In this document: piece after piece, positions 1,436 to 52,234 of the stretch | Numbering within the stretch: the first letter of the stretch is position 1 | How the letters are laid out: every line of letters begins with the position of its first letter | DNA from: a virus | DNA: 64,000 nt | Virus record (IMG/VR): IMGVR_UViG_3300029566_000004 | Direction: 5' to 3' (one strand) | Made by a program: the position numbers and the translations under genes | The notes under the pieces: generated by a model | Seen by the model: only the letters and a program-made list of their open reading frames with translations | The model's database searches: none | Told to the model about the DNA's origin: nothing

Positions 1436-1739
1436 CGATGGTTTCCTCCTCTGCTGTTATAATTGGATTTGTGATAGGATCGTAGTTATCACTTATATCA
1501 ACATGACACATATTTTTTAATTTACGACGACCTTCACGATTATTTACTCCATGATTAATCACTTTTAAGAATGCTTTTGCGAGTGACTCATTTTCTTCAC
1601 GAGCCTCTTTTAACATATTTTCTACATCGACGAGATAATCTGTTAAAATTCCTACATTCTTATTATATTCTGCGTCTTTTGGCGCATATAAAGTAACCGC
1701 CATCAGAGCATCAATTACTTCTTGTTGTTTATGTTTCAT
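1380..1739 (-). CDS. hypothetical acidic protein
   Basis: 119-aa ORF packed tightly between the primase and RecJ-like genes. TGA stop. Confidence 0.5.
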   Translation of the reverse strand: MKHKQQEVIDALMAVTLYAPKDAEYNKNVGILTDYLVDVENMLKEAREENESLAKAFLKVINHGVNNREGRRKLKNMCHVDISDNYDPITNPIITAEEETIDESTISVDTTKESEAESD

Positions 1740-2839: not shown

Positions 2840-2841
2840 AC

Positions 2842-3117
2842 TTAACCTTCAATGATGACTTTGCAACACCAGCCGAGAAGACCAAATTCTTTTGTGACAA
2901 CTTCACATAAAAATTCCATAGGTTTCATATTTGCTGGTTTTTGTTTGATATAAAATTTTGCCATATCTTTTGGCATCTTATATTCATAAGGATGACCATT
3001 TGCGTATGTGGGCATTGAAATTGAATCATCAACCCTGGGTGTTAATTTCTTTTTTGTAAATTTCTTTTGTGACGTACTCTTAGACTTTCGAGTAATAATA
3101 TTTTCACTAAAATTCAT
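2842..3117 (-). CDS. hypothetical protein
   Basis: 91-aa ORF in operon-like packing. TAA stop. Confidence 0.5.
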   Translation of the reverse strand: MNFSENIITRKSKSTSQKKFTKKKLTPRVDDSISMPTYANGHPYEYKMPKDMAKFYIKQKPANMKPMEFLCEVVTKEFGLLGWCCKVIIEG

Positions 3118-10004: not shown

Positions 10005-11045
10005 TCATTTAATACTATAACCAAATTCTTTTGCTCCAAAATAATTTTGCCAATAGATTTCTCGTTCATTTAAAAGTTCTGGAGGACATTCCTCGATTAC
10101 TTCAAACATAAAATTCTCAACACCATCGGCTTGCATAGCTGGATACAACTTATTGCGAGTTTGCGCTTCAGCGCCTAACCCGCGTTTTATGTGCTGGCGC
10201 CAACGGTCGGCAAAACGCACGCATTGACCTACATAGCACATTCCATTTAAAGTATTTGTAATTTTATAAATGCCCCCTACTTTATCACCAATTACACGAC
10301 CAATTAAATCGGTTGTAGGTTTTTCATAGTAACATTTATAAATTAATTTATTGAGAGTTTCTGGATTGTGTAAATACGGAGTGATACTTCGTAATTTTTC
10401 AATCTCCAATAGGTCAGTAGAAGGAATTTGTAACATATAGAAACTTTGCTGTTGCGCGTCAAGCATCATGCGTTTATAAGATTCAATGGCTGCCCGAGTT
10501 TTCTCTTGACATTCATTTAATCTATGGCGCTCTGATATAAATTGTTTGCGTAATTCTTTAATTTCATTTGCAAATTCTTCTTTTACTATTAAAAAATCTG
10601 ACCGATATTTATCAATTTCTTCTTGATAATTTTCGGCTTCTCGTTGAGCACTTTCCTCAAAGGAAGTTTCCATTCGCGCTTTAGCTTTATCATAAATTGC
10701 GCTGACGGCTTCTCTTGCCATTTCTTCAGTTGTTCGTGCATTAAAATCTAATTGACTAATGCGAGCATTAAGTTCAGCTTCTTCTGACTATAAAAAACCA
10801 ATGCTAAGATTAAGTGCATCTTCTCGTTCTTGTAAATCTCGGATAGTATTATTTTCCTGCTCAATGAGTTGAGAAGCTTCAAGCGCCTCAAGGCGCAAAT
10901 TGTCTCTCTATTCTTGTAGAATAGCAATCGACTTCTTCTATCGAATAATTGAGTGCTTTCTACTAAAATAAATATAAAAGTGTGCGCCGATGGAAATCAG
11001 ACTTATTGTTCCAAATATTATTAAAAGTGATAGTTCAATCGGCAT
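10005..11045 (-). CDS. TM + coiled-coil + C-terminal GIY-YIG nuclease-domain protein, three in-frame TAGs
   Basis: ATG 11045 (MPIELSLLIIFGTISLISIG.. is hydrophobic). Three TAGs lie in the heptad-like region. The C-terminus reads GGIYKITNTLNGMCYVGQ..RWRQH..E..W (GIY-YIG). Confidence 0.65.
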
Positions 11046-11060
11046 AAGTTAAAAAATTAA

Positions 11061-19892: not shown

Positions 19893-22430
19893 TTAAGTTA
19901 ATTTTCTTGCCAAATCGGCAACTTTACTACGATGAACATATCGTAATTCAATTTCGCCATATATATCAGTATTGCGGAATACTTTTGACACTCTTTTCAT
20001 TCCATTATGAATACCAGCATATGCGGGTGAATCAACTTGTGTTTTATCATCACCATCAATAATACATATTGAATTTTCACCAATGCGAGTGAGCGCAAGT
20101 TGCATCATATCTATATCCAAATTTTGAGCTTCAGAAATATATACACCACTATTATCAGGTGTTTCATATCCACGAATATCAGATAAAGGCAATAAAATCA
20201 ATTGTTCATTATCAATTAATGCCTCTACCTCCATACGACTACCTAATTTACTAATTAATAAGTTACCAATTTGTGAATCAAGTAATTTTTCATCACGAGT
20301 ACCGGGATAATCATTTTAAAGCCTTATATTTTTCAATATAAGATAGACTATATCTTAATTTCGGTTTAATAAAGTTTTATATAAATCATATTTTCTTTGT
20401 ATATACATAGTAGAATCGTTATAAAGAATATCTAAAATTTTTGTTACCTATTTATATCCTCTCCACTGACAATGCCAAGCGGTAGTATAGAAAGGCTTAT
20501 TATGTTCTGTTTTATTTATTAAATTATCTATTAATAAAACAAGTTCATTTGCTATACCTTCATGGTAACTTGTAAAATTTAAAGTAACATCGCTACTTTT
20601 ATTTTCACTGAAACTTATACTACCATCTCCATCAATTAATCCACGTATAAAATCCCTTAAAAATTTTTGTGGAATATTTTTAGGAAGAGAATTAATTTCA
20701 TAGGTTTTATTTGGTACTATATTATATTTTTGTAAATCTTGATATATTTGTTCATCACAAAATTCTAAACTATAGCATTGATTTCCTCTATTATCTAAAA
20801 TTAAATCACTATCAATCTAAAGAACAGTTTTTAATTTATCTAAGATATCTCTATCTTTAGCCTATAACGATATTCTAATTCGCCCTTGCTTTCCAGGAAT
20901 TTTACTAACATTACCATCGGTAAAAAGTAAACCTATGAAATAAGCTTTATCTGGAGAGTCTATACAAGAAAAATAGTCACTAATTATTCTTTTGTTAACT
21001 CGATTGGTTGTCTTTTTAGTTAAACCCAATTCTTTTATTAAATTTCTTAAGGTTTCTTTATCCCAACCAAATTCTTGAGCCAATGTTTTTAAATCTTCAC
21101 TCTCTTCGCAATAGCGTTGTTTCAAAATTTTTAACTGTTCATTAGTTAAAGTTTTCTTTTTTCTTCCGCCTCGGATAGGAATATTAGCCTAAACTATAAA
21201 TTCTCTAACTTGTCGATAGTTATACTTTGAATTTTGTGATAACCAAGTAATGGATTTACCGTTTACATATTCTTGAATAATTTCTTCTTTTGTCATTTTG
21301 ATTTCCTTCTTTCTTAAAATATTTTCTATTATATATAATTTTTAAAGAAAGAAGTTTTTCTTTTTTTGTCCCGAAATTTCCTGCGCTTCGAAAAATAATT
21401 ATATTTTTCTACTCCCTTGCGGGATAGTCGTTGAACCTTCCTCTATTCGAGGCTTGGCTGCTGATTGCCCAATCTTTTTAATTTTCATACTTTCACACTT
21501 AGACTTATTTCATTCTTATGTTGTAGTTTAAAAAGCTTAAGGGGTTTCCAGCAATTCACAGGATTTTACTAGAGCTTATCCCTTTGTTAACCCTAGCTTT
21601 GCGCTATTCCTAGTCGCAACAGTATTACAAAATATTACAATTTTACTGATTTGTCCTTTTTCCAATTTGGAAAATAAATAACCGAGTGCAAGAGTAGTTT
21701 TACCAGAGCCTGGCGCCCCCTTAAGCATTGTGACTTGATTTTGTAAAAGACTATCAACCGCACAAGCTTGATATATATCTCCGCGAATTGATTTAATATC
21801 GCCAAATAGTCGTGAAGAAAATACACCATACTTTAAATGCCTATGCGACATTCCAGTCCATACTACTGTATCTATTGGTTTATGATTTTTATCACATATA
21901 ATTAAATATTGTCCGATATTTAAATTATATATATTTACATTTTGATTTGAATAAAAATAACTTAATTCATCATCTGATAAAGTTTTTTCCATATAACCAG
22001 TATACTCTGGTTCTTGGTCATATCCAACCATTTCGATTGAATCATTACCAAAAATTAAATTAGATAATATAAATAAAGACATGTCATTTGTTACAAATAC
22101 AACTTCATCAGGATGATATTTTATATCATAATAAGTTGCGCAAGCTAAAATTCGCATATCGTTATTATCTAAATATAATCCAACTTTCTGTAAAGGCTCA
22201 AGCATTTCTGGTTGATAATTAATTACATCGTATTTATCAATATTATGGTATAATTGATTTAATAATTGTCTTGCCGTATATTTTATATCAGAGTCTTTAT
22301 TGGCAGATACTTTTATCAATTCCAGCTCTTCTAAAGTAATTGATGAAATGGCAAATCGATTATTAAATAACTTACTTCCCATCACTAATAGACTGCTGGT
22401 ATCATAAAATTTAAAAGTTGTCGTCCTCAT
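19893..22430 (-). CDS. phoH: PIN-PhoH-like ATPase, split by an intron (exon 1 21590..22430, exon 2 19893..20311)
   Basis: Exon 1 has an N-terminal PIN-like region and Walker A LKGAPGSGKTT. Exon 2 reads ..YPGTRDEKLL..SEAQNL..IIDGD... The proposed junction ..NSAKLGY|YPGTRDEK restores the PhoH (I/L)G(F/Y)LPG motif. The 5' exon ends in U and the intron ends ..AAAATG. Confidence 0.75.
20312..21589 (-). mobile_element. intron (probable group I, different family) in the PhoH-like gene with a LAGLIDADG ORF
   Basis: A 1278-nt insertion interrupts a conserved motif. Its boundaries obey the U / terminal-G rule. I did not fold the core. Confidence 0.6.
20316..21296 (-). CDS. LAGLIDADG homing endonuclease (two motifs), five in-frame TAGs
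   Basis: MTKEEIIQEYVNGKS.. N-terminal HTH. Motifs ..AYFIGLLFTDGNV.. and ..FIRGLIDGDGSI... The frame is open from 21296 to TAA 20316 only with TAG read-through. I checked it codon by codon over 20750-20864. Confidence 0.75.
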
Positions 22431-25480: not shown

Positions 25481-26911
25481 TCACATTTCTGATGCGATAT
25501 CTGCATCGGCAACATCAATTGCCTCTTCAGTTATAATACCAGATAAACACTTAAATGTGAAATTCTTGTGTTTATAGGCAGTAAATGAAGGACGATTTAC
25601 AATACGGACCACTACACCTTCGCGCACATGGGTTTTACCTATTGGGTCTGGACCGTCGCAGTAAGTTTCAGCAGCTTCCATTACCCATTCTCCGGGAGTT
25701 TTAGTAACATAATCAATAATTCCTTCACTATTTAGATATAGAATATTGCGGTCATTACTATCTGGAATGCGGAGCTGCTCAAACACAGGAACAGTTTTAC
25801 AACCCATTTGCTCACAACGATAACGCATATAGTCAGGAGTATATTCTACGACATTGCCATCCTCATTAGTCATAGTCATACGATATACATAGAAATCAGA
25901 CTGAGACACAGGCTCTGGGATGCTAAATACACTGATTTCATCACGATAGAATTTTTTGCGCTGACCAGTTGGCTCACAGCCATATGAGAATACAGTAGTA
26001 GGACCATACTGACGCTCAAATTCTTTATCGTTTAACTTTTTATTACTTACTGATCCCATAATAGGCGCACCAGAAGTAGTAAAACCAACAACTTCGTAGA
26101 ATACTTCTTCACCCTTATGAAGTTTGCCTTCGAAGAACTTTGCGTGTGGCTCACGGAATTCATTAGAGCCATAGAAACCGCCATCGAAATTGTCAAGTAC
26201 AGTACGACGAGTACCAGTTACATAACCCCAATCATAAATTGGCTTGCCGGGACGACGGAATAGTTTGTCCCAAAAAGTGCGCTTCATACCCTTAAACACT
26301 GGCAGATAACCGGTGCGCTGAGAGGTGCCATGCAATTTGAGTGTAATCTCAATCTCGTCACCAGGCTTAAAAGCGTTAAGATTATACGCAAGTTGTTCAG
26401 TATCGGCGTGCTCGTTAAATAAAGGCGCAATAGGTATATTCTTAGGCTTATTCTTACGAGTGCGGTTTGGGCTATTAAATTCATTATGAGCCTTTACCTT
26501 AGGAATATATTTATCACAAATCCCGTGGCCATTAAGCTCATGGATAACAGCGCCTTCAGTTAAGAGAGACATATCTACACCAGTATATGCTACTGAGTCA
26601 AGAGCCATAAAGATACCATCAGAAGGTTCTCCGCGCAAACGAATAGTCTTGATGTTGCGCTTATCAGGCTCAAGATATCCACCAACATTTTTACCAGTTT
26701 CATCCTTGCGACGTACAAGATTATTCTGTGCGCAAAACTCTTCGCTTAACTGAAGCCCAGATGGGAAATAAATACCCATATCACCAAGTTTTACATCCAG
26801 ACCAACGCAAGTTTCACAGTCAAAGAACTTAGCGATTTGTAACTTATTGGCGTTCATATGTGGACGCAACTCTTTTACTTTCACTACATAACCACAGTGA
26901 GTAATACTCAT
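25481..26911 (-). CDS. ATP-dependent RNA ligase (DraRnl/NgrRnl-like: N-terminal OB-like domain + nucleotidyltransferase)
   Basis: Candidate motif I ..ITLKLHGTS.. (KxHG, as I recall for DraRnl KIHG). N-terminus ..GYVVKVKELRPHMNANKLQIAKF... AGGAG RBS. ATGA overlap with the upstream exonuclease gene. Confidence 0.6.
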   Translation of the reverse strand: MSITHCGYVVKVKELRPHMNANKLQIAKFFDCETCVGLDVKLGDMGIYFPSGLQLSEEFCAQNNLVRRKDETGKNVGGYLEPDKRNIKTIRLRGEPSDGIFMALDSVAYTGVDMSLLTEGAVIHELNGHGICDKYIPKVKAHNEFNSPNRTRKNKPKNIPIAPLFNEHADTEQLAYNLNAFKPGDEIEITLKLHGTSQRTGYLPVFKGMKRTFWDKLFRRPGKPIYDWGYVTGTRRTVLDNFDGGFYGSNEFREPHAKFFEGKLHKGEEVFYEVVGFTTSGAPIMGSVSNKKLNDKEFERQYGPTTVFSYGCEPTGQRKKFYRDEISVFSIPEPVSQSDFYVYRMTMTNEDGNVVEYTPDYMRYRCEQMGCKTVPVFEQLRIPDSNDRNILYLNSEGIIDYVTKTPGEWVMEAAETYCDGPDPIGKTHVREGVVVRIVNRPSFTAYKHKNFTFKCLSGIITEEAIDVADADIASEM

Positions 26912-29935: not shown

Positions 29936-30184
29936 ATGGATTTAATAACATATGCTTTATTAAAGCGATAGATAGCTGAAAGCGGAGTTGATATTGAAAC
30001 TATCATTCCCCATATAGGTGAAAATGGGAATTGGTACATCGGTGATAAAGACACAGGCGTTTCTGCGTTGCCCCCAGACGTAACTAACGTAGACATAGCT
30101 GACATCCAATAGGAAAAAGATGTTACTTTATATATTTTTGGTGGGTCTGCCTCCCAAGTTTTACCAAAGGAGGAAAATGAATAA
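29936..30184 (+). CDS. hypothetical tail-fibre-associated protein, two in-frame TAGs (29969, ~30107)
   Basis: MDLITYALLKR-TAG-IAESGVD...DIQ-TAG-EKDVTLYIFGG... Ends at TAA 30182-30184. Frame verified. Confidence 0.5.
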
Positions 30185-30708
30185 TGTCCAAAGTATTAAA
30201 AGCGGTCGTTTAGCTGCGACGTGATAATGAATTTAATTTTGAACCTATTGCGAATTCATTCGTTCCCGCCAATGGCGAAGTAGTTCTAATAGATACACGT
30301 CGAGATGGTTTGCGTGCAAAAGTAGGAGATGGTAAAACTCCCTTGGCCAATCTTATTTGGACTGATGCACGTTATCGCGATACCGTTGTGACGGGGTATT
30401 ATGATGAATCTGAAGATGTTTTTTATGAAACAGATGCCAAAGAAGTAACTTTATCTGCCTATACCAATCGTCTTTATATTGACAGATGGCGCAATAAAGT
30501 TTATTATTTTAATGGATTAACTTACGTATTAGTGGATGGGACTTGTCCCCCCGCATCCGCTACAATACCTGGCATAGTTAAATTATATTCTACTACTGGC
30601 CAGAACACAGATGGCACAATGACTCAGAAAGCAATTACTGATGCATTAGACACAAAGTCTAAAGCTTCTGTAGATTTGCAAGATGAGCTTTTAGTTTTTT
30701 CAATTTAA
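30184..30708 (+). CDS. tail-fibre protein with Mtd_N/HylP-type N-terminal motif, one in-frame TAG (30211)
   Basis: MSKVLKAVV-TAG-LRRDNEFNFEPIANSFVPANGEVVLIDTRRDGLRAKVGDGKTPLANL resembles the recurrent (I/V)Q(L/F)(R/K)R..W....L..GE...DT...K.GDG motif. Confidence 0.65.
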
Positions 30709-30723
30709 GGAGGAAAAATTTAT

Positions 30724-32019
30724 ATGACATATACTTATGCAAATGCTCCCGTTCTTTCTAAAATTAAAATCGGTGATAATTATTATTATATGAAAGATGC
30801 CGATGTACGGGCAATACTTGATACGTTTAATAATGCGATCGTAACTGGTACTATTGCCGCAAACGCAAGCGATGGTAATACTACAGATTTAGTTACTTTA
30901 GGTGTTGTTAAAGATTATGTTAACGCACAAGTTGGTACTATTAATAAGTTTGACGTCGAAGTTGCAAATCCTGATAAAATTTTAACTACTCCTACCGCTG
31001 ATGATATGTATATTCTTTATTTAGTTCCATCAGAGAATGCTGCTGCTGGTAGTTATGTTGAATATATTGTATTACGTTCCGGTACTGAAGGCAATTATAC
31101 TTATGCTTGGGAGCAGATTGGCAATACAACTATTGACTTAACAGGTTATCTCTCTACTGATGCAACTGTTGCTGGCGTTAAATTCACTAATGGTAATGTT
31201 TCAGCCACAGCCTTAAAAACTGCATTAGACCTTGATAGCCTTGGCGCTTTTGCAAAAGCGGATACTGGTACTGCTACTGTTGTAAATGGTGTTGAGGATC
31301 ATTCGTATCAACCTGCTGGTAATGTATCAGTAGTTCCTGGTTCTACTACTGCAACTGTTACATCTACTGGTACATATACTCCTGCTGGTAATATAACGGG
31401 TAGTGTTGTAGCTAGTGGTAATGTTTCAGCTGCTAAGAATAATGAAAGTGGCGCATTCCAGCTTAGTGGCTCTGTCGCTGCTCCAACAATTAGTGTTGTT
31501 CTTTCAAACGATAATTTTGTTAAGACTGCTGATGCTGGTTCATTACCTTCTTTCACAGAGGGTGCTTTTACAGCTGCAACATTAACTTACTCTAATAGTA
31601 ATTTTGCTACTAATGGTTCTATTGCTTCAATTGGTAGTGGTGAAGATGCTGAAACCTTAATCTTCACTGCGGCAAGCACCGGTTCTGCAAGTAATATTAC
31701 CGCATTTAATGGTGGTTCTAAGGCTGCTGACACTTTTAGCGCAGGCGCGCTTCCCACTTTCACAACAGGCAGTGCTGCGATTGGTGTTACTAGTGCTACC
31801 GCAACCGCTCCATCCTTTACCGGAGATAAATTTGACTTTACGTTTATTGGCACAGCTGCTACTGTTTCTGCCAACTTTGAAGGCACAGCAGCTACTATTA
31901 ACGTAAGTGGTAATTATGACAAGACTACGATTGAAAGTGCGTCCTTTACTGGTACCACTGCAACTCTGTCTCATAATGTCACTACTGGTACAGTTACTGT
32001 TACTCCAGCTACAAAATAA
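30724..32019 (+). CDS. tail-fibre-like Ala/Thr/Gly/Ser-rich protein
   Basis: 431-aa ORF, low complexity with repetitive ..TGTYTPAGN.. segments. Confidence 0.6.
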   Translation: MTYTYANAPVLSKIKIGDNYYYMKDADVRAILDTFNNAIVTGTIAANASDGNTTDLVTLGVVKDYVNAQVGTINKFDVEVANPDKILTTPTADDMYILYLVPSENAAAGSYVEYIVLRSGTEGNYTYAWEQIGNTTIDLTGYLSTDATVAGVKFTNGNVSATALKTALDLDSLGAFAKADTGTATVVNGVEDHSYQPAGNVSVVPGSTTATVTSTGTYTPAGNITGSVVASGNVSAAKNNESGAFQLSGSVAAPTISVVLSNDNFVKTADAGSLPSFTEGAFTAATLTYSNSNFATNGSIASIGSGEDAETLIFTAASTGSASNITAFNGGSKAADTFSAGALPTFTTGSAAIGVTSATATAPSFTGDKFDFTFIGTAATVSANFEGTAATINVSGNYDKTTIESASFTGTTATLSHNVTTGTVTVTPATK

Positions 32020-32084
32020 CTAATAATAAGGATAAATTAAGTAGGGGTTGAACTTCCCCTACTTAATTTTAAAAGGAGATAAAT

Positions 32085-32426
32085 ATGGCAGATACTTTAC
32101 GCATTAAAAAAATAAAATTAAACGATGGATCTGTCTATGCGATCTTCGATGAAGGTTCATTACGTTTAAATGACAATAATGTTTTAATTACGGGTAATAA
32201 CATAGTTGACAATATGATTATTAAGGGGTCTTTACAAATTACTGAAATTGATGATATTCCTGTTAATAAATCGCTCGAATATGTTTTAACCTGGGATGCC
32301 TCAATTGGGGCATTTTATAAATGTACCTTAGCAGATTTATTTAGTAATGATATTTATGAATTATCTGTGGATAATAATAACATTCTTACATTAAATAATT
32401 TATATGCTAATACAACTATTCAATAA
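32085..32426 (+). CDS. hypothetical late protein
   Basis: 113-aa ORF with a GGAG RBS. Confidence 0.5.
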   Translation: MADTLRIKKIKLNDGSVYAIFDEGSLRLNDNNVLITGNNIVDNMIIKGSLQITEIDDIPVNKSLEYVLTWDASIGAFYKCTLADLFSNDIYELSVDNNNILTLNNLYANTTIQ

Positions 32427-32452
32427 ATTTACAAAGAAAAGAGGACAAATTT

Positions 32453-33661
32453 ATGGCATATGATGCTAATGATTTGGTTATAAAATAGATTCAAGCATCA
32501 AATGGTTTGCATGAATTAGATGCAAAATATTTTGATGGTCATAAGTGGTCAGATGTAACAGAATTGGTAGAAGCGGGTTTTGAAGCTACCATTATGACAA
32601 CTCTTCCCACGATTACTAGTGAAAATTATAATACATATCGTAATACCTTAGCTTTAAAGGCAGACGAAAATGCTGAAGCTGGTACGTATTTGGAATATAT
32701 TGTAGTTAAAGAGGGTAGTACTCAAACTCCCACTTATACTTGGGAACAAATTGGTAGTACAAAAACTAATTTTACAATTCCAACAGAACCGTCAATTACT
32801 TTAACTGTTAGCACAGCTTCTACTACAGTCCATACTACTAATAATGGTAGTCAAACCGCTACTGGAAATGCAAGTATTGTATATGATAAAGCAACCAGTA
32901 TTGGCTCTGCGGGTGGAGCTACTGCTACTGTTGAAATTACAGTTGACAAGTTAGCGCCTACTATCACTGAGAGTACTGGCGGAGCCAATATAAAGAATAC
33001 GAGTTAGCTGGCAGCATCAACAGTTGATACTACTGAAGATGGCAGTCATACCCATTCTGTTACCACTACTGCGCATAGTCATACAGTTTATTTAAGTTCC
33101 AGTTCTAAAACTGTTGTTACTAATGTAACTAAAACTGGTGCAGCTGGTGCTCATACACATAGCATATCAGTTAGTAGTTCTAGCACTCCTGTTATAATTT
33201 CCGCAAGCGTTAATAATAATATCCTAAGTTTTGGCACAGCTAACGTCATTTCTTCTATTAATGCAGCTAGCGCAACTGGAGAAGCCGGTGGTCATACTCA
33301 TAGTATTACTCCTATTACTGCAACCATCAATCATATTACAGGTGCCACTTTAGCTGCTAGTGCTCCTAATGGAACTGCAACCTCTGCCGGCACTCATAGT
33401 CATAATGTTACGATTGCAGCTCATAGTCATACTTATGTTGAGCTTAAAGCGCATACTCACGCTATTGCTACTATCAGTGCAACATATAGCGGCGATGCTA
33501 CAATTAGTGAACATAGTCATACTATTAATTATACTACTACAACTGTTACTGGTACTGCTAGTGTTGCGGTTGCAAGTCATACTCATAGTGTTGTTATACC
33601 TGCGCATACTCATACCGTAACCGTACCTGCTCATAATCATAGTACAGCTGCTGGTTTATAA
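32453..33661 (+). CDS. tail fibre with C-terminal HxH-repeat domain, two in-frame TAGs (32486, 33005)
   Basis: MAYDANDLVIK-TAG-IQASNG... After TAG 33005 the frame stays open to TAA 33659-33661. That stretch has no Met (so it is absent from the ORF track) and 11 HxH motifs (HTHS, HSHT, HNHS...). Confidence 0.7.
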
Positions 33662-33729
33662 AAAATTATTTAATGAAGGGAGAGGATTTAATCCTCTCTC
33701 TTTAATTAATTTAAAGGAGATAAAGGTGT

Positions 33730-34884
33730 ATGAATTATAAGATTTGTATTTATGCAATTTGTAAAAATGAAAAAGAATGGATTAATCGGTGGATAGATAA
33801 TATGTCTGAAGCTGATTATATCGTTGTTTTAGATACAGGTTCAACCGATGGATCTTATGAAATGTTAAAAGAAGATTCTCGTATAACTCGTGTTGAATAG
33901 AAAATCATTAATCCTTGGCGTTTTGATGTAGCACGCAATGAATCAATGAAATTGGTTCCAGAAGATACCGATATTTTTGTTTGTACTGACTTTGATGAAG
34001 TGTTTGAATAGGGATGGGCGCAAGTATTACGTGATAATTGGCAACCTGAAGATACAAGATGCTATTATACATATGCATGGTCACATAATGCTTTAGGTGA
34101 GCCTCAAGATGTATTTAAATATGATAAAATTCATGCAAAAAATTATCATTGGGTATTTCCAGTGCATGAAGTATTAGTTCCAAACGATTTAAGTAAACCA
34201 GAAGTTGCTTTAGACGCAGGCGAACATATTTATTTACATCATTTATAGGATATAAGTAAACCGCGCGCCTATTATTTTGATTTGCTTAAAATTGGCGTAG
34301 AAGAAAATCCTGCTAATTCGCATTGTTAGATGCTATTAGCGCGGGAATATTTACTTAAGCAAGAATATGATAATGCGCTTGAAGCTTATGAAAAATGTTT
34401 ACAATACGCTGATATTTATGAGCCTAACAAAAAAATGGTTTTATGTGAGACATATGGAAGATTAGGTGATTTATATTATTGGCATAAGCACAACTTGAGC
34501 GAATCTGTTAAATATTTTAATAAATGGATTGAAGTTGACCGCACGTATCGTGAACCTTATTTTTGTTTGGCTGATATATATAATAATCAGGAACTTTATC
34601 CCTTAGCAATTGGATTAGTTACTACTGGATTAATCGTTGGTCAGCGTCATTATGATTGGGTTGAGCGCAAGGATAATTGGATTGCTAAAGGCGAAGAACT
34701 TTTATGCTATTCTTATTTAGGTTTAAAAGATTATTCTAATGCAATTGTACATGGTAAATTAGCATTAGCACATGACCCAAACAATGTAACGCTTTTACAA
34801 AAATATACAATGGCTCTTGAGGGTTCGATTGCAGGAATGACGCAATCAAATAATAATAGTAACGAATCATTGCAAAAACTTTGA
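33730..34884 (+). CDS. family-2-like glycosyltransferase fused to TPR repeats, four in-frame TAGs (33898, 34009, 34246, 34327)
   Basis: MNYKICIYAICKNE..VVLDTGSTDGS..NPWRFDVARNES..CTDFDE.. followed by TPR-like ..LLAREYLLKQEYDNALEAYEKCL... All four TAGs are in frame by coordinate arithmetic. Confidence 0.7.
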
Positions 34885-34935
34885 AAATGATGGATGCGGG
34901 CGAGGATCGTTAAAATAAAAAAGGAGGATGATTGA

Positions 34936-36930
34936 ATGAATGAAATTTCGAAAATAATTATTCCAGGAAATACTGTTCCTTATGACTTACGTGATGATTA
35001 TGCGCGCGAAAGAATTAATAATAGCCATTTATTTATTGTTAGTCCGTTAACGACGAGTATAATAAATATATATACTTTATTAGGACGGGTGGTAGAACCT
35101 TATGAAGGATTAATGCTACATATTTTATGCACAAATAATAATAACGACTCGATTACCCCCACATCTATTCGATTAGCAGCGAACGAATTACCAATTGAAA
35201 TTGAGTATTCTAATTTTATTCGCCGCCGCCCAATAAATGGTGGGATTTACAGTTTTGTTTTACATTATATACCCGAAGAAGAGACGACTCCTGCGCATTG
35301 GAATTTTTATCCGATAGATGACACATTAAAATCAAAAGGTGTTGAAATTATTGAGTATACTACCGAAGCCGATGCAGCTCATGCACAAGTAAAAAAAGCA
35401 TTGAGTCAAAATATATTACCAGTTGTGCACTATATTGATACAAATGCTGACAATTATGAATATTGGCTACCATTATATGAATATGCTACTGATAAAACTA
35501 GTTTTATTTTTTCAGCATCTACGGCATATACTTCCAGTGAAGATATTTCGTTATCTTATATTAGAATAAATTTAGACTCTACGACCTGGGCTATTGATAA
35601 CTGTGGAACTAATACGGTTAATATTCCCACAATGGCTTAGGCAAAAGGATTATTTTATGGGACTTGCTAGACCAGCAATGCCACAGCTGCAAAGACTGTT
35701 ACAGGAGTTGCTGATTGGCCAGAGGCTTTTTTTGCCGGTTAGACAATTTTAATCAAATTTCAACATGGTAATAATGTTAAAGAAAATCTTACTTTAAGTA
35801 TAAATGGATCAACTCCAGCTCCAATAGTAGCTTATGATGGTGTTAGCCCTGCGACGATATGGGCAGCTGGCTCAATTTTATTATTTATTTATAGTGGTAC
35901 GGATTGGCGTTTAGTCGATGGTCATAATAATGTTAAAATTTTAGGTGATTTAGGTATGGGGTATGGCTCTTGTGCCAATGCATTAGAAGCAACTGCTAAA
36001 AATGCATCTATTCAAGATTATGTATTAACAACTGGAAGTCTTGTAGCAATTAGATTTACATATAGCGTACCTGCTGGTTCTACTTTAAATATTTCTGGCA
36101 CTGGCGCAAAAGCAATTTATTATAAAGGTGCGCCTATTCAATCTAATATAATTAAAAATAATGATACTGCGCTATTTGTTTATACTGGTTCCGTATATGA
36201 ATTATTGACTACTACTTCAAAAAATTTATTGCCATTAACAACAAGTACTGATTATATTGTATGTACTACATCTGCTAATAATAGTATTAAAATAGCAACA
36301 TTAAGTGGATTTACATTACCAACTGCAGCAAACCCCTCTGGACATAGATTTGCGGTTAATTTTAAGAATTCAGTGCCCGCTAACGCACAATTAAATATTT
36401 CTAGCACTGGAGCTAGACACATTATTTGTAATAATGCAAATATTAGCGCAAATACTATTCAAGCTAATGATGTTGTCATATTAGAATCTTCTTGGAATGC
36501 TTCGTTGGCTACAGCTCAATATATTGTGCGTGCGATTGATCGCAATAATATACGACATGTTTATGAGAATTCAATACGTATACGCAATACTACTATAAAC
36601 AATGCTAACGGACATATCTACGAGTCACCGACAGATATTAAAGGGTACTGGAGTGCCACAACATCAACAGGTAGTACGACAGCTACCAATCCTACAATAT
36701 GTTTATATAATAATACAAATGGTTTCACAAATATTGCACCTGACATGGTACATTAGATAATAGGATCGGCATATATAGAAATTGGCTCGCGAAAACATAT
36801 AACTCCTATTATTTTAGATCAAATTGATGTATCACGCACTGCTTTTTTACAGGCTCATTTGGCGAATTTTTCAGCGCCCGCTAATAGCACTCCTACTTAC
36901 TATTTGCAAATAATATGTCCTAAAAAATGA
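34936..36930 (+). CDS. receptor-binding/tail-fibre-like protein with repeated ..C.T..TAAK..G..V.(I/V)(K/R)F..N..LN(I)..TGAK.I.Y.. modules, four in-frame TAGs (35638, 35668, 35740, 36754)
   Basis: ORFs 34936..35640 and 35956..36756 share one frame and are bridged by three TAGs. The module repeats are continuous across the TAGs. The true stop is TGA 36928-36930. Confidence 0.65.
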
Positions 36931-36941
36931 GGTGATTAATT

Positions 36942-37823
36942 ATGGCAAAATATTATCCTGAAAATTTTATTAAATGGGCTTTAACACATGTTAAACGCTC
37001 CACTATTCCTTCAGATGCAAAATTACCATTACCTATTGCAAAATGTGGTACTGAACCTTGGAATTATTTATTTGGCAGTGTTCGTGTAATGACAACTCAA
37101 GCGACTATTGACTATTATTTTAACAATCATTATAAAAATAAAATGACACGTATTGAATATAATGCAATTACTGATGCTTGGAGTCGTACAGGTTACGCGA
37201 CTGATTGTCAAGGTCTCTTGGATGCCTGGATGACTCATGAGATGAACAACAAGACGGATATCAATGCCCAGATGAATTATGCAAACTGGTGCACAGATAA
37301 GGGATCAATTGCAAGCATAAATCGTCCATATGTCATTGGAGAAGCTGTTTTCATGTATTCAGCTAGATCTAAAAAAATGACACATATCGGATGGATTTGT
37401 GGATTTCGCGCAAATGGTGAACCTCTTGTCGTTGAGGCACGGGGCATTGCGTATGGCGTAGTTGTAACTGAATTGTCAAAACGCAATTGGACTCATCGCG
37501 GTTTAATGACTGCAAAATTTGATTATACTAAACATCAGGAGGAACCTAAACCTATGTCTACAATTAAATTTGAAAAAACAAATCCAATGAAAATTGGAGC
37601 ACCTTATTTAGCCATGCAAAAAGCCTTAAACGCAGCTGGTTATACAGACGCTACTGGTAAAGTATTAGTAGAAGATGGAAAATGGGGTACTAAATCTTAG
37701 CAAGCATTTGAGAAATTGATTAATGCACATATTACAATTCCTGAACCAGAAAAAGTAAATCGTATTACTACATTTTTTTCTCCAGATGGCAAATATAAGT
37801 TCTCTGTTATTTTAGAGAAATAA
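36942..37823 (+). CDS. cell-wall hydrolase (Cys/His NlpC/P60-like) with C-terminal peptidoglycan-binding repeat; putative endolysin; one in-frame TAG (37698)
   Basis: ..TDCQGLLDAW..THIGWI.. then ..LQKALNAAGYTDATGKVLVEDGKWGTKS-TAG-QAFEKL.. (PG_binding_1-like). Stop is TAA 37821-37823. Confidence 0.55.
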
Positions 37824-37861
37824 ATTTAATAATAAAAATAAGAAAGGAAAGGAAGAATAAT

Positions 37862-38635
37862 ATGTCTTCAAGTCCAATTATTTTAACTACTACAAATTTT
37901 AGCACTTTATTTAGTGAAATTTATAGTGTAGTACATCCCGGCACAGGAGAAAATAATAATAATATTGGCAAAGTTTTATAGGTGGGTAATGATGGTAAAG
38001 TTACTTTTACTAATGATATTGTTACTAGTACTGGTTTAAACGCTTTAGAAGCGCGTGTTACGAATAATGAAACGGCTTTAGCCAATAAAGTTACTTTAGA
38101 TGATATAACAACCGCACTTAATACAGCTCGTCCAGTAACCAATAGTGCAAGTGCAAAATTGCAAACTGCAATTCTTAATCAAGCCGATGTAGCCATTGCT
38201 GCATAGTTAAATACTGGCGCTATTGGCGCAGCTATAATTTCAGCAACAACAAATATGGTAACTACAAGTGATGTTACAACAGCTATTAGTAATGCTAAAA
38301 AAGAACTATCTGCTGTTAAGGCTAATAGCGATTTAGCAAATGTATTAGGTTTTGCTAAAGGTAATAATACTAATCTTATAGCTCCTGACGGTACAGCATT
38401 AAATAAAACTAGTGTAACTACTATTAAAGAATATATTGATGTTAATGATGCTGAATTATCTACAAAAATAGGTAGCGCACCAAATAGTACTGTTGCATTA
38501 AATACATTAAAAGCTAATTTAGGTATTACAACTAGTGGTGATATTAATATTTGGCAAGCTATTGAAGCAATTTCCAATAAAATCGGTAATACAGTTACTG
38601 TTAGACCTTCCGATTTAGGCATATCTACTACATAA
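37862..38635 (+). CDS. tail-fibre/structural protein, two in-frame TAGs (37979, 38204)
   Basis: MSSSPIILTTTNF...GKVL-TAG-VGNDGKVTFTND...AIAA-TAG-LNTGAIG... Three ORF-track pieces lie in one frame. Confidence 0.6.
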
Positions 38636-43878: not shown

Positions 43879-43952
43879 TGGTGCGGGGCTGCGGATTTGA
43901 ACCGCTTTTTCAGCTTTTTAAAGCTGAGGGTATACCTTTAGCCTAACCCCGC
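43879..43952 (-). tRNA. atypical tRNA-like gene with an 8-nt anticodon loop UUUAAAAA
   Basis: Acceptor GCGGGGT/GCCCCGC, A73, CCA. Perfect 5-bp stem TCAGC/GCTGA encloses 8 nt. The D stem is weak and the variable loop short. Confidence 0.5.
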
Positions 43953-44073: not shown

Positions 44074-44808
44074 CTTACTACTCTATGTTACCATAGCCGC
44101 ATTATTGCGTTGTAGTCTGGATCATGTCTTCTCCATATCTTTCGACTTAGGAGGCTGGTGTATGATCTCTACACATTTACAATCTAAATGATTGATTTAG
44201 CTCGGCGTTATCCCAGTAGGACTTTCGCCGAATTAGCCAGCATTCACTCAGAAGATTTCTCACTCTGGTGCTCTATTTGCAGAAATAGTATTTTTTCTTC
44301 TACGCCAATTTGGAGTATAAGAATGACAGTTTGGACATAATAATTGAAGATTTTCTAAACGATTGTCTGTCCTATCTCCATTAATATGATGGATTTCAAG
44401 AGTAATTGGTTGTCCTAACCACTCTGTTAATCCACAGCATTCACATTTACGTCCTCTCAATTTAATTAAAGGATTTAATGTTGTGCTGCCATTCTTTTTA
44501 ATTGAATTTACTGTAAATAATGTGTAATCATAATTCTCATGATTCCATGCTTGTCCTAAAAAATGTGAGGTATCAAGTTGAAGTTCTTGACACATTTTAT
44601 TTAATGAAGTTAATGCTCCGCCACTGTCTCTTGCATATCCAAGGGCTATTGCAACTTCACGCATAGACTACGCATTTTTTACAATTTCTTCAATTTGTTC
44701 TTTTGAAAAAGATTTCCATTTTGGTTCTCTTGCCATAATATAGACCTCCTTTTTTCTTGTCTATTTATTATGGCAGAGGCGATAGATATTTTAATCTACT
44801 CTGCCCAA
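44074..44808 (-). mobile_element. group I intron in tRNA-Leu(UAA) carrying an HNH endonuclease ORF
   Basis: The 5' exon ends in U and the intron ends ..GTAAG. A candidate internal guide GAGU pairs with exon ACUU. About 257 nt are non-coding, including ..TCCAGACTA.. / ..TAGAGTAG... Confidence 0.7.
44260..44735 (-). CDS. HNH homing endonuclease (intron-encoded), one in-frame TAG
   Basis: MAREPKWKSFSKEQIEEIVKNA-TAG-SMREVAIALGY.. and C-terminal ..CECCG..HHINGDRTDNRLENLQLLCPNCH... Confidence 0.75.
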
Positions 44809-45037: not shown

Positions 45038-45126
45038 TGGCTGGGGTGGAGGGATTCGAACCCCCATCTTTCGCCTCAGAAGCCCGGCATTTAGAGTGCC
45101 GTGTGTTGCCATTACACCACACCCCA
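45038..45126 (-). tRNA. amber suppressor tRNA, anticodon CUA (reads UAG)
   Basis: TGGGGTG-TG-GTGT-AATGGCA-ACAC-A-CGGCA-CUCUAAA-TGCCG-[19 nt]-GGGGG-TTCGAAT-CCCTC-CACCCCA-G-CCA. All stems are Watson-Crick apart from one G-U pair in the T stem. Confidence 0.85.
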
Positions 45127-45271
45127 GCGTATTATTTAAGGAAAAAGATAAAACATTTGTCAAAAATTATTCGTTAAGTTATCAAGACCTCTAGTATAAT
45201 ATTTTATCAGAATATCACTTATAATAATTGCGGAAAAGGTCTTTCTTTATTTATATTATATTATAAATTTT

Positions 45272-45799
45272 TTATTTTTTCAATTCTTCAATAATTAAAT
45301 CTTTTGGCAAAAATTTTTTACATAAATAACAAGAGCCAAAAGACACACCATCTTGCGTTTTTGACATTGAAGGATCTTTATAATAATTAATTCTCTTATC
45401 AAAACCAAGGTATTGTATATTTTTCAAATAAGGGAATCGAGCTTGTCCCTGCAAAGTAGGAACAGGTAATAACATTGCATAAGGTTTCCCTAATTCGTCA
45501 AGTCTCTTTAAGACATTGTCTTTCTGAGAAAAAGGAGGATTAGAAATAATTATGTCATAATGTTCTTTTGGTTCCCAAAAGAAAAAATTTTTCCCTTCGT
45601 CTATGTGAGAATGTATTACTTTAAAGCCATTCTTTACAAATACCTAAACATACTTAGATGTCTCCAAGTCAAAAGGACACCAAATAGTTTCATTCCCTTG
45701 TAAGTATTTAATAAGAGGAATTACTGCATATTCAGGTGTAAATACTTCATCACTTGCTTTGTCAGTTTTAGCCTACAAATAACCGACATTAAGAGGCAT
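45272..45799 (-). CDS. DNA (amino) methyltransferase-like protein, two in-frame TAGs
   Basis: MPLNVGYL-TAG-AKTD..VFTPEYAV..SKYV-TAG-VFVKNG..DIIISNPPFS.. (NPPF motif IV). ATG 45799. Confidence 0.6.
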
Positions 45800-46524: not shown

Positions 46525-46598
46525 TGGCAGGGGTGCAGGGACTTGGACCCCAATCTGCGCCTTTGGAGAGCGTTATGCTGCCGTTACACCACACCCCT
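46525..46598 (-). tRNA. tRNA-Trp(CCA)
   Basis: Acceptor AGGGGTG/CACCCCT, G73, CCA, loop CUCCAAA. Confidence 0.8.
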
Positions 46599-48747: not shown

Positions 48748-49215
48748 CTTACACATCAGCTTACCAATTCTTTACTACTTCCTCCAATTCATAATTTTTC
48801 GCCCAAGTAATACCTCTTACTTGACCATTTTTTGTAGGAAGAATACGAAGTCTTTTATCTGCTCCGCACTCCTCAACTGGAACTAAATAACATTTTCCAT
48901 TAAAAGTAGTTACGAAGTAATCAATTTCCTCGTTTGAGTATGTATGATGCACAATCTTACCATCTTTTCTATTACAACTTCTACAAGAAAATTTGAATGA
49001 TGCACCATCATCTTCGGTATTTGATGTTTTAGCTTGAACTCGAATAAACTTTCCATTAACATCTACTACAAAGTCATATCTCTCACAATCTCCATATGGA
49101 GTTAAAACATTATAACCAAGTTTTAGAAATGCTAACATTGTTTCAAGTTCTGTAATATTTCCTTTTTGTTTACTATTCATTTATCTTTTCATAAAGAATA
49201 GATAAGGTCAGGTAA
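48748..49215 (-). mobile_element. 468-nt insertion in the tRNA anticodon loop, almost entirely a PD-(D/E)XK endonuclease ORF
   Basis: Only about 35 nt lie upstream and 13 nt downstream of the ORF within the insertion. With the terminal-G rule the loop becomes CUGU|CAA (Asp). An Asn loop CUGUU|AA would need an intron ending in C. Confidence 0.55.
48761..49180 (-). CDS. PD-(D/E)XK endonuclease of the I-Ssp6803I-like (tRNA-intron) type
   Basis: MNSKQKGNITELETMLAFLKLGYNVLTPYGDCERYDFVVDVNGKFIRVQAKTS.. fits the ..KG...E......L..G..VL.P.GD..-YD.V.D..G...RVQ(V/A)K pattern. Confidence 0.6.
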   Translation of the reverse strand: MNSKQKGNITELETMLAFLKLGYNVLTPYGDCERYDFVVDVNGKFIRVQAKTSNTEDDGASFKFSCRSCNRKDGKIVHHTYSNEEIDYFVTTFNGKCYLVPVEECGADKRLRILPTKNGQVRGITWAKNYELEEVVKNW

Positions 49216-49491: not shown

Positions 49492-49563
49492 ATTTTAAGA
49501 TTGGAGTCGAACCAATGACCTTCAGTTTTGCAGACTGATGCTCTACCTCTGAGCTACTCTCCC
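49492..49563 (-). pseudogene. tRNA-Cys(GCA)-like with a non-pairing acceptor 3' strand
   Basis: GGGAGAG-TA-GCTCAGAGGTAGAGC-A-TCAGT-CUGCAAA-ACTGA-AGGTC-ATTGG-TTCGACT-CCAAT is followed by CTTAAAA instead of CTCTCCC. Confidence 0.45.
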
Positions 49564-50867: not shown

Positions 50868-51497
50868 TTATTTAGAAAATTTCCAAATATATCCATAAGC
50901 AGTTTTTCGTTTTCCTTTACAAACATCTGAAATATGACTAATTCCGCCTCTAGATGTTGATTCTGGACAAACTGTTTTATAGGCTTCAGATAAAGAAGGA
51001 AAAGTTCTTAAATATTTACCATTTTTATCATATTGATTAATGATACATCCAAATTTTTCTTGATTAATTTTTTCTTGAGATTTTATCTCAATATTATACT
51101 TTTTCAAAATTTGACTTAAATAGTTTCTATCACAATGATATATTTGACTTATTTCTTCTAAGTTAGGATTTTCTTTATAAGCAAAAATTAAAACATCATA
51201 ATCTAAATAGCGTTTTCCATCGCCCCCTAAAGTGGCATTATATCCATTTTTAAAAGAACGATAATGTTCAATCCAGTACTTTTCTCTTTCTTCTGGATTA
51301 TTTGTTTCTTCTATCTGCTCGATATGAAAATGTTCAATTCCATATTTGCGCATCGCCGCATATAGCGGTCTTTTTTCATTTCTATCTCGAAAAGCATCTT
51401 GACAATGTTCTTTAAATCTTTTTTCAATAGAAAATTCTGTTTTGCCAATATAAATTTTCTAATTTATATCATTAACAATTTTATAAATGTATGCCAT
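50868..51497 (-). CDS. free-standing GIY-YIG homing endonuclease, one in-frame TAG (51459-51461)
   Basis: MAYIYKIVNDIN-TAG-KIYIGKTEFSIEKRFKEH...YWI..Y....GYN...GG. AGGAG RBS. Confidence 0.75.
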
Positions 51498-51582: not shown

Positions 51583-51655
51583 TGGCGCCACGAGGATTCG
51601 AACCCACGATTACCAGATTGAGAAACTGGTTGCCTAGCCATTAGCAGATGGCGTC
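51583..51655 (-). tRNA. tRNA-Glu(CUC)-like, second copy
   Basis: Acceptor GACGCCA/TGGCGCC (A2xC71 mismatch), loop UUCUCAA, imperfect T stem, no CCA. Confidence 0.5.
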
Positions 51656-52091: not shown

Positions 52092-52117
52092 TAACATACT
52101 CCTTTGATTAAATTTAC

Positions 52118-52234
52118 AAGACACTTTTTTGTTATTATTACTCTGCCAACTGAGCTACCAGTCCAAATGAACTGGATAGGATTCAAACCTGCGGCAACGA
52201 GAAATAATTTAATCTTATTTGCTGTTAGTGTCTT
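52118..52234 (-). ncRNA. circularly permuted tRNA-like element (Y-RNA/YrlA-like candidate)
   Basis: The 8-bp basal stem AAGACACT/AGTGTCTT encloses four parts in order: a hairpin, the T-like arm GCAGG-TTTGAAT-CCTAT, the closed acceptor-like hairpin CCAGTTC-ATTT-GGACTGG, and the D arm TA-GCTC-AGTTGGCA-GAGT. It lies about 12 nt downstream of a promoter cassette's predicted start. Confidence 0.5.

Follow-up and report, generated by a model that had tools for sequence, protein, structure and literature searches.

Among the amber suppressors of Escherichia coli, supE is a glutamine transfer RNA (tRNA-Gln) with the anticodon CUA, and su+7 is a tRNA-Trp with the same anticodon that is charged mostly with Gln. 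Anticodon arms can also be imitated outside tRNAs, as in the messenger RNA (mRNA) of E. coli thrS, whose operator mimics an anticodon arm to which the cognate synthetase binds with its anticodon-binding domain. A putative anticodon mimic has also been described in a yeast HisRS mRNA element (PMC6542539). Phages that read TAG as Gln (code 15), including crAss-like phages, Lak phages and the phAss-1 group, have been described from the gut (PMC10607447; 10.1101/2021.08.26.457843; PMC7886860), and both TAG-to-Gln recoding and phage tRNA-Sup(CUA) are already known. Here we consider an 89-nt tRNA gene with the anticodon cta, called by ARAGORN on the minus strand (45038-45126) of a 64,000-nt stretch of the IMG/VR virus record IMGVR_UViG_3300029566_000004, the whole of which is referred to below as the window. 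We read its product as a Gln-inserting amber suppressor whose long variable region is a retained, miniature Gln anticodon arm that aids recognition, and we put the probability of this reading as a whole at about 0.6.

The phage of the window is like the code 15 phages in having a CUA anticodon, TAG codons that align with Gln, no dedicated synthetase nearby, and in-frame TAGs found for the most part in homing-endonuclease genes and in a gene block that appears to be late. The likeness to the phAss-1 group extends to a low GC content, a size of ~130 kb, a wealth of tRNAs and weak DNA matches to Enterococcus and Enterocloster phages (PMC10607447; 10.1101/2021.08.26.457843; PMC7886860). A second anticodon-like loop or a long variable region is mentioned neither in the text of the code 15 phage papers nor in that of a functional screen of 213 phage suppressors (PMC12636597). 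We found no literature description of such an architecture in phage suppressor tRNAs, in a coverage that excludes many subscription papers, so a prior description is possible. The tRNA resembles E. coli tRNA-Gln and supE in its acceptor strand (UGGGGUA there, UGGGGUG here) and in G73, and resembles su+7 in a body nearest to tRNA-Trp and a CUA anticodon without G36; supE and su+7, however, are point mutants of 75–76 nt, class I in structure and with a variable loop of 4–5 nt, whereas here a CUG hairpin of 13–15 nt is added. With the class II tRNAs (Ser, Leu, Tyr, Sec) and the allo-tRNAs it shares a variable region of more than 10 nt that forms a hairpin, but it differs from them in its class I D arm, a stem of 2–3 bp, a conserved 7-nt loop and a 3' tail of 6–7 nt, as well as in an insertion apparently placed before position 44 instead of after 45 and an acceptor/T branch of 7/5 instead of 8/4 or 9/3 (PMC5389517); the allo-tRNA label was rejected. 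The thrS and HisRS elements are alike in that a hairpin copies a cognate anticodon loop, but those mimics sit in mRNAs and regulate translation, whereas the putative mimic described here lies inside a tRNA whose own anticodon has changed. We regard the architecture as new and the recognition principle as possibly new.

The RNA can be read directly as a cloverleaf. Its 5' half runs UGGGGUG UG GUGU-AAUGGCA-ACAC A CGGCA-CUCUAAA-UGCCG, then comes the variable region GGCUUCUGAGGCGAAAGAU, and the 3' half is GGGGG-UUCGAAU-CCCUC CACCCCA G CCA. It has a 7/5 acceptor/T branch, U1-A72, G2-C71, G3-C70, G10, G73 and an encoded CCA, and 19 nt separate its anticodon stem from its T stem. The decoding arm, which begins 1 nt past the D stem, is canonical, with a 5-bp stem, U33 and A37. 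The Rfam model RF00005 places the gene among the tRNAs (58.5 bits, E ~1e-11, against a gathering score of 29 bits) and handles 16 nt of the variable region as an insertion. Folding by minimum free energy yields the cloverleaf and, within the variable region, a small additional hairpin; the shuffle z-score of -0.24 is not significant alone, as is common with individual tRNAs. Three viral contigs (129–139 kb) have near-identical copies, placed in the same tRNA cluster. These results bear out an earlier account made from the letters of the DNA, the sequence-only reading, which had described a cloverleaf with the loop CUCUAAA that acts as an amber suppressor, with U1-A72, G73 and a 19-nt variable region. 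The suppressor is real, and it is one of a large phage-borne family, whose conserved Gln anticodon loop that account had overlooked. The label 'Pyl' that ARAGORN gives to the gene stems from the anticodon alone. In a tRNA-Pyl the variable loop has 3 nt, the D loop is very small and the anticodon stem has 6 bp, and pyl genes accompany it; this identity was rejected for a tRNA with a 19-nt variable region, a 7-nt D loop and a 5-bp anticodon stem; neither a pyl gene nor an aminoacyl-tRNA synthetase was found among the window open reading frames (ORFs) scanned.

The hairpin in the variable region follows a design that recurs across viral contigs. These were scanned a first time for CUCUAAA followed by 18–30 nt and then GGUUCGAAUCC, with the content of the variable region unconstrained, which gave 112 loci and 96 CUA tRNAs, 62 of them unique. 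One group, with G1 and long D arms, has Ser-, Leu- or Tyr-like bodies and unrelated arms. The other, with U or A at position 1, holds 40 unique class-I-bodied sequences with variable regions of 19–22 nt and a single design: 1–2 nt, a covarying 3-bp stem with a 7-nt loop, then a tail of 6–7 nt. The extra loop is centred on YUG, and in these 40 sequences it always holds CUGA or UUGA apart from two, which have CUGC and CUGAC. In the MAFFT alignment its U and G are invariant, its A is at least 90% conserved and position 34' is only ever a pyrimidine (primes denote the extra hairpin), which yields the pattern Y32 U33 Y34 U35 G36 A37 R38 with the Gln anticodons CUG and UUG at 34–36. Many of the loops read CUCUGAA and so differ from the decoding loop CUCUAAA by a single base. 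We defined the family by a class I body, a first nucleotide other than G, a variable region of 18–22 nt, the YUG hairpin and a distance of 12–13 nt from YUGA to GGUUC; the window tRNA belongs to it, with a spacing of 13 nt.

Covariation supports the stem strongly. Full-length MAFFT alignment misplaced gaps at the junction of anticodon stem and variable region, and an anchored 19-nt alignment was used for covariation, with pairs counted in 31 unique variable regions anchored on YUG. The register of the hairpin is symmetric about the central U: at offsets of 4, 5 and 6 from it, pairing occurs in 29 of the 31 regions for 31':39', in 30 for 30':40' and in 21 for 29':41', and within the loop 33':37' (offset 2) is U:A in 23, and 32':38' (offset 3) is C.A in 12, U.G in 11 and G-C in 4. 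Paired positions exchange CG, GC, UA and AU. Across 29 distinct 19-nt segments, in which each of the three stem pairs varies on both sides, 88.5% of cells are paired against 52.7% after shuffling, and the covariation score is 0.814 against 0.216; neither value was reached in any of 500 shuffles (0/500 for both). A shift of the register by one column lowers pairing to 47–49%. In the window the hairpin is GC-[UUCUGAG]-GC, drawn by the fold program as GCUU-CUG-AGGC with U.G and U-A pairs, and its loop UUCUGAG shows CUG with U33-like and A37-like neighbours. Behind the hairpin stand two unpaired bases, and the last 4–5 nt of the tail look like an ordinary variable loop, with a G46-like base and a U48-like base opposite A15, and may keep the corresponding tertiary roles. 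From these patterns the extra arm is very likely a conserved Gln-anticodon-loop hairpin. A K-turn or box C/D reading of the CUGA was rejected, as UUGA variants exist and the tail is without a conserved GA.

Because the Gln-anticodon interpretation was formed after the first set had been seen, a second set was drawn with different T loops (GGUUCRAKUCC). Ten of its 12 class-I-bodied long-arm CUA tRNAs clearly carry the YUG hairpin, L563 having CUG+U and L509 being borderline, and the class-II-bodied long-arm CUA tRNAs of this second scan are without it. When both scans are pooled, the hairpin is found in 46 of 51 unique long-armed CUA tRNAs that pass the class-I-body filter, and the five exceptions comprise three with class-II-like bodies and two borderline cases. 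The pooled 1:72 pair is U-A in 23, A.C in 9, U.U in 6, A-U in 5, U.C in 4 and U.G in 2, and is never G-C in true family members; at position 73, 34 have G and 17 have A. The genes of the family are 88–92 nt long. The same scan for UCA (opal) suppressors, where a CCA mimic might be expected, found no long-armed tRNA; the arm is thus specific to CUA, and there is no independent support from Trp. In bacterial and archaeal genomes only three of 120 loci were family members, one of them on a 164-kb contig binned with Mollicutes (no host assignment), so that the family is essentially phage-borne. An anticodon-agnostic scan (TAATGG...YTGA...GGTTCGAATCC) returned mostly ordinary tRNA-Gln preceded by TAA, which is useful for calibrating spacing, and only two oddities with other anticodons (L397, L453).

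Some other tRNAs met in these scans are recorded here in their own right. A second type of CUA tRNA (L461, L519, L467, L472, L540) has a 14-nt variable region, e.g. UGCCUGACGGCGGA, in which CUGA is present without being centred in a 7-nt loop; this type could have arisen from the family by shrinkage or have nothing to do with it. A 92-nt tRNA-Ile(UAU), L068, has a family-like layout (short stem, 7-nt loop, 6-nt tail) and the Val-anticodon-like loop CUCACAA. As a single suggestive case, it does not suffice for a general rule of mimicry among odd long-arm phage tRNAs. The viral contigs L011, L050, L066 and L110 have 91-nt tRNAs that combine a class-II-type body (long D arm, 21-nt variable region) with the anticodon CCA (Trp).

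The position of the hairpin is informative about its origin. In the 49 filter-passing sequences with a YUG motif, 13 nt lie between the hairpin YUGA and the GGUUC of the T arm in 43 and 12 nt in five, and in 102 ordinary tRNA-Gln genes the distance from the anticodon plus N37 to GGUUC is 13 nt in 37, 14 nt in 58 and 15 nt in six. The extra-arm loops CUCUGAA, CUUUGAA and UUUUGAG are the real anticodon loops of some ordinary tRNA-Gln genes, and past the hairpin the molecule resembles a tRNA-Gln, with the 3' strand of a decayed stem, a variable loop of 4–5 nt ending in U opposite A15, and the T arm. As this geometry is collinear with that of a genuine tRNA-Gln, an origin from tRNA-Gln(YUG) is the most economical, with the extra arm as the retained ancestral Gln anticodon arm. 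A tRNA-Gln(YUG) would have gained a CUA arm 5' of its own anticodon arm, e.g. by duplication of that arm, and the original arm would then have shrunk to 3 bp while its loop sequence stayed under purifying selection.

A Gln-inserting suppressor should be matched by TAG codons that stand for Gln. Length statistics of ORFs over the whole window under alternative codes gave no sign of recoding; gene-by-gene inspection identified a set of genes that are complete only when TAG is read through (Table 1). The apparently late block encodes a glycosyltransferase/TPR protein, fibre-like proteins and a lysin-like protein. Pfam domains extend across the TAGs in the GIY-YIG, LAGLIDADG and glycosyltransferase genes. 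The large replication genes are in the standard code (NAD-dependent ligase, gyrase A and B, DnaB-like helicase and RNA ligase). UAG is read through in this phage. The glycosyltransferase has 2255 homologues, full-length ones included, and in an alignment of the best 120 of these its first and third TAG columns hold Gln in 91 and 85, its second is variable (Pro 57, Lys 30, Glu 13, Gln 5) and its fourth holds Arg in 87 and Gln in 18. Ser occurs at columns 1 to 4 in 2, 2, 0 and 6 of the 120, Leu once, Tyr once and Trp never. The nearest homologues come from recoded phages, and the 'Q' given for them may be an annotation choice, which makes the comparison partly circular; the argument was therefore rebuilt from the codons present in the DNA and from NCBI or JGI homologues. 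Among the 16 of the latter, assumed to be annotated in the standard code, Gln is found in 14 at column 1 and in 12 at column 3. In the DNA of sister phages, real CAA or CAG codons lie opposite window TAGs, and the converse was found too. Over all credible genes, eight of 12 informative window TAG sites face Gln, encoded as CAA or CAG in sister phages, and the other four face Arg, Ala, Asp and Arg.

The meaning TAG = Gln is thus well supported by these alignments, with Ser, Leu, Tyr and Trp essentially absent at TAG sites, and is in keeping with published work on gut phages that recode (PMC10607447; 10.1101/2021.08.26.457843; PMC7886860). The sequence-only reading had named, as an outcome that would speak against it, a Ser, Leu or Tyr score from isotype models together with TAG positions aligned to that residue; as for the alignment, TAG faces Gln. 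In an E. coli extract, 28 of 29 phage tRNA(CUA) tested put in Gln (PMC12636597). The CUA tRNA of the window is very probably a Gln-inserting amber suppressor. As a separate observation, the three homing-endonuclease genes with in-frame TAGs have 3–4 TAGs each on an otherwise standard-code strand, and preferential recoding of intron endonucleases has been published (10.1101/2021.08.26.457843).

Identity for E. coli GlnRS lies in a weak 1:72 pair, G2-C71, G3-C70, G73 and G10, and in Y34-U35-G36, A37 and U38 of the anticodon loop. The acceptor-side set is complete in the CUA tRNA (U1-A72, G2-C71, G3-C70, G73, G10); the decoding loop, with C34, U35, A36, A37 and A38, is without G36 and U38, and C-U-G-A is found in the extra hairpin instead. 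The tRNA-Gln of bacteria without GlnRS, the substrate of GatCAB, has U1-A72 and a small D loop that lacks the additional base found in tRNA-Glu. The window tRNA shows U1-A72 and its D loop has 7 nt; A1 or a mismatch occurs in other members of the family. The E. coli tRNA-Gln sequence that the sequence-only reading gave for comparison is correct, with a 100% match to annotated tRNA-Gln in 5424 genomes. For a comparison of bodies, the extra hairpin was removed, the anticodon masked and the remainder set against 750 collected tRNAs: the nearest is the phage's own tRNA-Trp (46525-46598), another phage tRNA-Trp (L053) ranks second, ahead of the sister phage's tRNA-Gln, while Ser and Tyr tRNAs are among the most distant and some tRNA-Leu score near tRNA-Gln. 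A description as a su+7-like Gln/Trp hybrid is accordingly fair for the body, the nearest sense types being its own tRNA-Trp and then the sister tRNA-Gln. The D arm does resemble that of the phage's tRNA-Trp, as had been claimed, but GUGUAAUGGYAGCAC is common among phage tRNA-Gln genes, so the resemblance is not specific to Trp.

That the tRNA is a Trp derivative charged by TrpRS, with UAG standing for Trp, is nevertheless suggested by this nearest neighbour, with which it shares six of seven acceptor pairs, G73 and a similar D arm. Against it are the absence of Trp from every TAG column, U35 in place of the textbook TrpRS determinant C35, U1-A72 in place of A1-U72, and an extra loop that matches the Gln and not the Trp anticodon, and we consider it very improbable. 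The 19-nt variable region and G73, the discriminator of E. coli tRNA-Ser, would likewise fit a class II tRNA that is a substrate of SerRS (or LeuRS or TyrRS), with UAG read as Ser, Leu or Tyr. The arm is class II-sized, as the sequence-only reading had it, but its architecture is unlike that of the window's own Ser and Leu tRNAs: these have D arms of 16–17 nt and variable stems of 4–6 bp with 1–2 flanking nt, whereas the CUA tRNA has a 15-nt D arm with a 4-bp stem, a variable stem of 2–3 bp and a 7-nt 3' tail. Of all isotypes, Ser and Tyr are among those whose tRNAs resemble the body least (some tRNA-Leu being near tRNA-Gln), Ser, Leu and Tyr are rare at the TAG columns and the sister-phage codons are CAA/CAG. 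With arm, D arm, body similarity and TAG columns all in disagreement, class II membership was rejected, and charging by these enzymes has next to no likelihood.

We now turn to how a tRNA without a Gln anticodon might be charged with Gln. In the proposed mechanism the phage would translate in-frame UAG as Gln, mainly in its apparently late plus-strand block and in homing-endonuclease genes, and the host would charge the CUA tRNA with Gln, either by GlnRS or in two stages, first by a non-discriminating GluRS and then by GatCAB. For recognition, both GlnRS and non-discriminating GluRS depend to a large extent on U35 and G36. Host charging is suggested by the Gln determinants of acceptor and D stem, by the absence of a synthetase among the ORFs scanned and by the published charging of phage CUA tRNAs by GlnRS (PMC12636597). 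Compensatory substitutions accumulate in the stem of the hairpin, yet U35' and G36' are always the same, which argues that the loop bases are read by something. A Gln-specific partner would read the retained loop, most plausibly the anticodon-binding domain of the synthetase (GlnRS or non-discriminating GluRS), and such reading would offset the G36 lost from the decoding anticodon. That the extra arm functions in Gln identity is a possibility we hold tentatively, with the balance somewhat against it. Slightly more doubtful is the full picture of a natural 'two-anticodon' tRNA, in which CUA decodes on the ribosome and the miniature YUG arm keeps recognition for Gln charging.

A number of observations count against the reading of the arm as a retained Gln anticodon arm that aids recognition. 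YUGA was taken for a Gln anticodon post hoc, although this later held in the independently drawn second set. The stem in the window consists of two Watson-Crick pairs and a U.G, with G.G at the outermost position. In the family, the two outermost pairs that the ancestral arm would have had are not maintained (each is paired in 7 of 31), which makes it unlikely that the hairpin works as a complete anticodon arm, and a reading of it as a complete alternative arm was disfavoured for this decay. TAG column 4 faces a conserved Arg, present in 14 of the 16 NCBI/JGI homologues. A single CUA tRNA lies within the window, where the extra Rfam tRNA matches are Cys-like and Glu-like, but the window is 64 kb of a ~135-kb genome, and a further CUA tRNA elsewhere is therefore possible. 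Short-arm CUA suppressors that can be charged with Gln occur in the same kinds of phage, which implies that the long arm is not strictly required. Finally, in the known GlnRS and GluRS complexes these class I enzymes come from the D-arm side and the variable region faces the solvent; for the variable-arm loop to enter the anticodon pocket, the tRNA would need to refold at its five-way junction or be bound in a second event.

Several of these points would be expected if the tRNA were a Gln suppressor whose hairpin is read by no Gln enzyme, the hairpin being a leftover of duplication kept as a bulky arm. Class II synthetases approach from the variable-loop side, and LysRS mischarges amber suppressors through U35; the arm might serve as a steric anti-determinant against class II synthetases, or tune the interaction with the ribosome or EF-Tu, with its loop conserved for tertiary contacts. 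Such a role is favoured by the restriction of long arms to CUA suppressors and their absence from UCA suppressors, by a hairpin too short for a real anticodon arm, by a variable region that points away from class I enzymes and by the insertion of Gln by short-arm suppressors. Sterics, however, fail to explain an invariant U and G, an A conserved in at least 90% and a pyrimidine at 34' amid a freely compensating stem, and leave unaccounted for the exact match of the conserved triplet to the Gln anticodon, in which only the wobble-like position varies, between C and U. We therefore think a bulky leftover unlikely. Conservation of the loop sequence beyond structure would also fit a YUG hairpin that acts as a decoy or ligand for another reader of the tRNA-Gln anticodon loop (a host-defence anticodon nuclease, a modification enzyme, or a regulatory RNA or protein) and that protects or regulates the suppressor and has no part in charging. 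The RNA ligase and the more than 25 tRNAs of this phage are typical of phages that counter tRNA-targeting defences. Yet no candidate partner is encoded beside the CUA tRNA, the link to CUA would be left unexplained, and we know of no Gln-specific bacterial anticodon nuclease; a decoy is improbable, more so than a bulky arm. The retained Gln anticodon arm that aids recognition is the reading we prefer.

Table 1. Features of the window that bear on the CUA tRNA, the in-frame TAG codons and the surrounding genes.
Feature	Position	Strand	Basis or remark
Acceptor 5' strand	45126-45120	-	direct reading
D arm	45117-45103	-	direct reading
Anticodon arm	45101-45085	-	direct reading
Decoding anticodon CUA	45092-45094	-	loop CUCUAAA at 45096-45090
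Variable region, 19 nt	45084-45066	-	direct reading
Extra hairpin	45073-45083	-	fold and family covariation
Gln-anticodon-like triplet CUG in extra hairpin	45079-45077	-	direct reading
7-nt 3' tail GAAAGAU of variable region	45066-45072	-	family spacing comparison
T arm	45065-45049	-	direct reading
Acceptor 3' strand	45048-45042	-	direct reading
G73	45041	-	direct reading
CCA	45040-45038	-	direct reading
Promoter-like TTGAAA-17-TATAAT	45255-45283	-	~130 nt upstream of CUA tRNA; 11/12 consensus positions, consensus match only
TAG-containing block, apparently late	30181-38635	+	1–4 TAGs per gene
Genes of TAG block	30181-30708, 32411-33661, 33724-34884, 34936-36930, 36936-37823, 37799-38635	+	
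Glycosyltransferase/TPR gene	33724-34884	+	in-frame TAGs at 33898, 34009, 34246, 34327; chief evidence for TAG meaning
Toprim/primase-like gene	1736-2848	-	1 in-frame TAG
GIY-YIG genes with in-frame TAGs	3802-4527, 10005-11048	-	homing endonucleases
LAGLIDADG gene	20355-21341	-	4 in-frame TAGs; homing endonuclease
Apparent intron-split gene	20355-22430	-	includes the recoded LAGLIDADG gene
Match to Enterocloster phage DNA	21405-21567		
PIN/PhoH-like gene	21576-22430	-	
RNA-ligase-domain protein	25481-26911	-	suggests tRNA repair
tRNA unnamed by ARAGORN	43879-43952	-	'taaa', 4-base anticodon; Rfam 34.5 bits only
Group-I-intron-like RNA	44095-44292	-	Rfam 42.8 bits, under gathering score 50
HNH endonuclease ORF	44260-44664	-	just downstream of CUA tRNA
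PD-(D/E)XK endonuclease ORF and NUMOD1-domain ORF	48761-49180, 50868-51353	-	probable homing endonucleases
Cys-like (GCA) tRNA-like match	49498-49558	-	Rfam; no proper acceptor stem; missed by ARAGORN
Glu(CUC)-like tRNA-like match	51583-51655	-	Rfam; missed by ARAGORN
Weak YrlA (Y-RNA-like) match	52112-52219	-	31.6 bits against gathering score 69; edge of tRNA array

The CUA tRNA is one of 25 tRNA genes that ARAGORN finds on the minus strand between 43.5 and 51.9 kb, and the array and its neighbourhood hold several further features (Table 1). The tRNA left unnamed by ARAGORN has a 5-bp stem CAGCU/AGCUG with the loop UUAAAAA, giving the anticodon AAA, or alternatively an 8-nt loop reading UAAA, and it is conserved in the sister phage (L003 6112-6185). 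The group-I-intron-like RNA adjoins and overlaps the HNH endonuclease ORF, and two further probable homing endonucleases lie within the array. Elsewhere in the window, the PIN/PhoH-like gene is followed by DNA with matches in Enterocloster phages and in a Clostridium botulinum phage record (D-1873), where the matching region carries a group I intron annotation; together with the recoded LAGLIDADG homing endonuclease this looks like an intron-split gene.

How host enzymes that read the anticodon, GlnRS and GluRS among them, efficiently charge tRNAs whose anticodon has changed has hitherto been left as an assumption, and a covarying Gln-anticodon-loop hairpin offers a concrete, testable handle on this question. 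The gene length of 88–92 nt may be one of the reasons why standard tools overlook or mislabel suppressor tRNAs. Even if the hairpin is not an identity element, it represents an undescribed tRNA architecture. If it is one, the principle by which the tRNA is recognised would be new, and suppressor tRNAs that are efficient or orthogonal could be built on a design that already exists. Decoding would then be uncoupled from aminoacylation identity, and phages would have solved the main problem of suppressor engineering by duplicating an anticodon arm.

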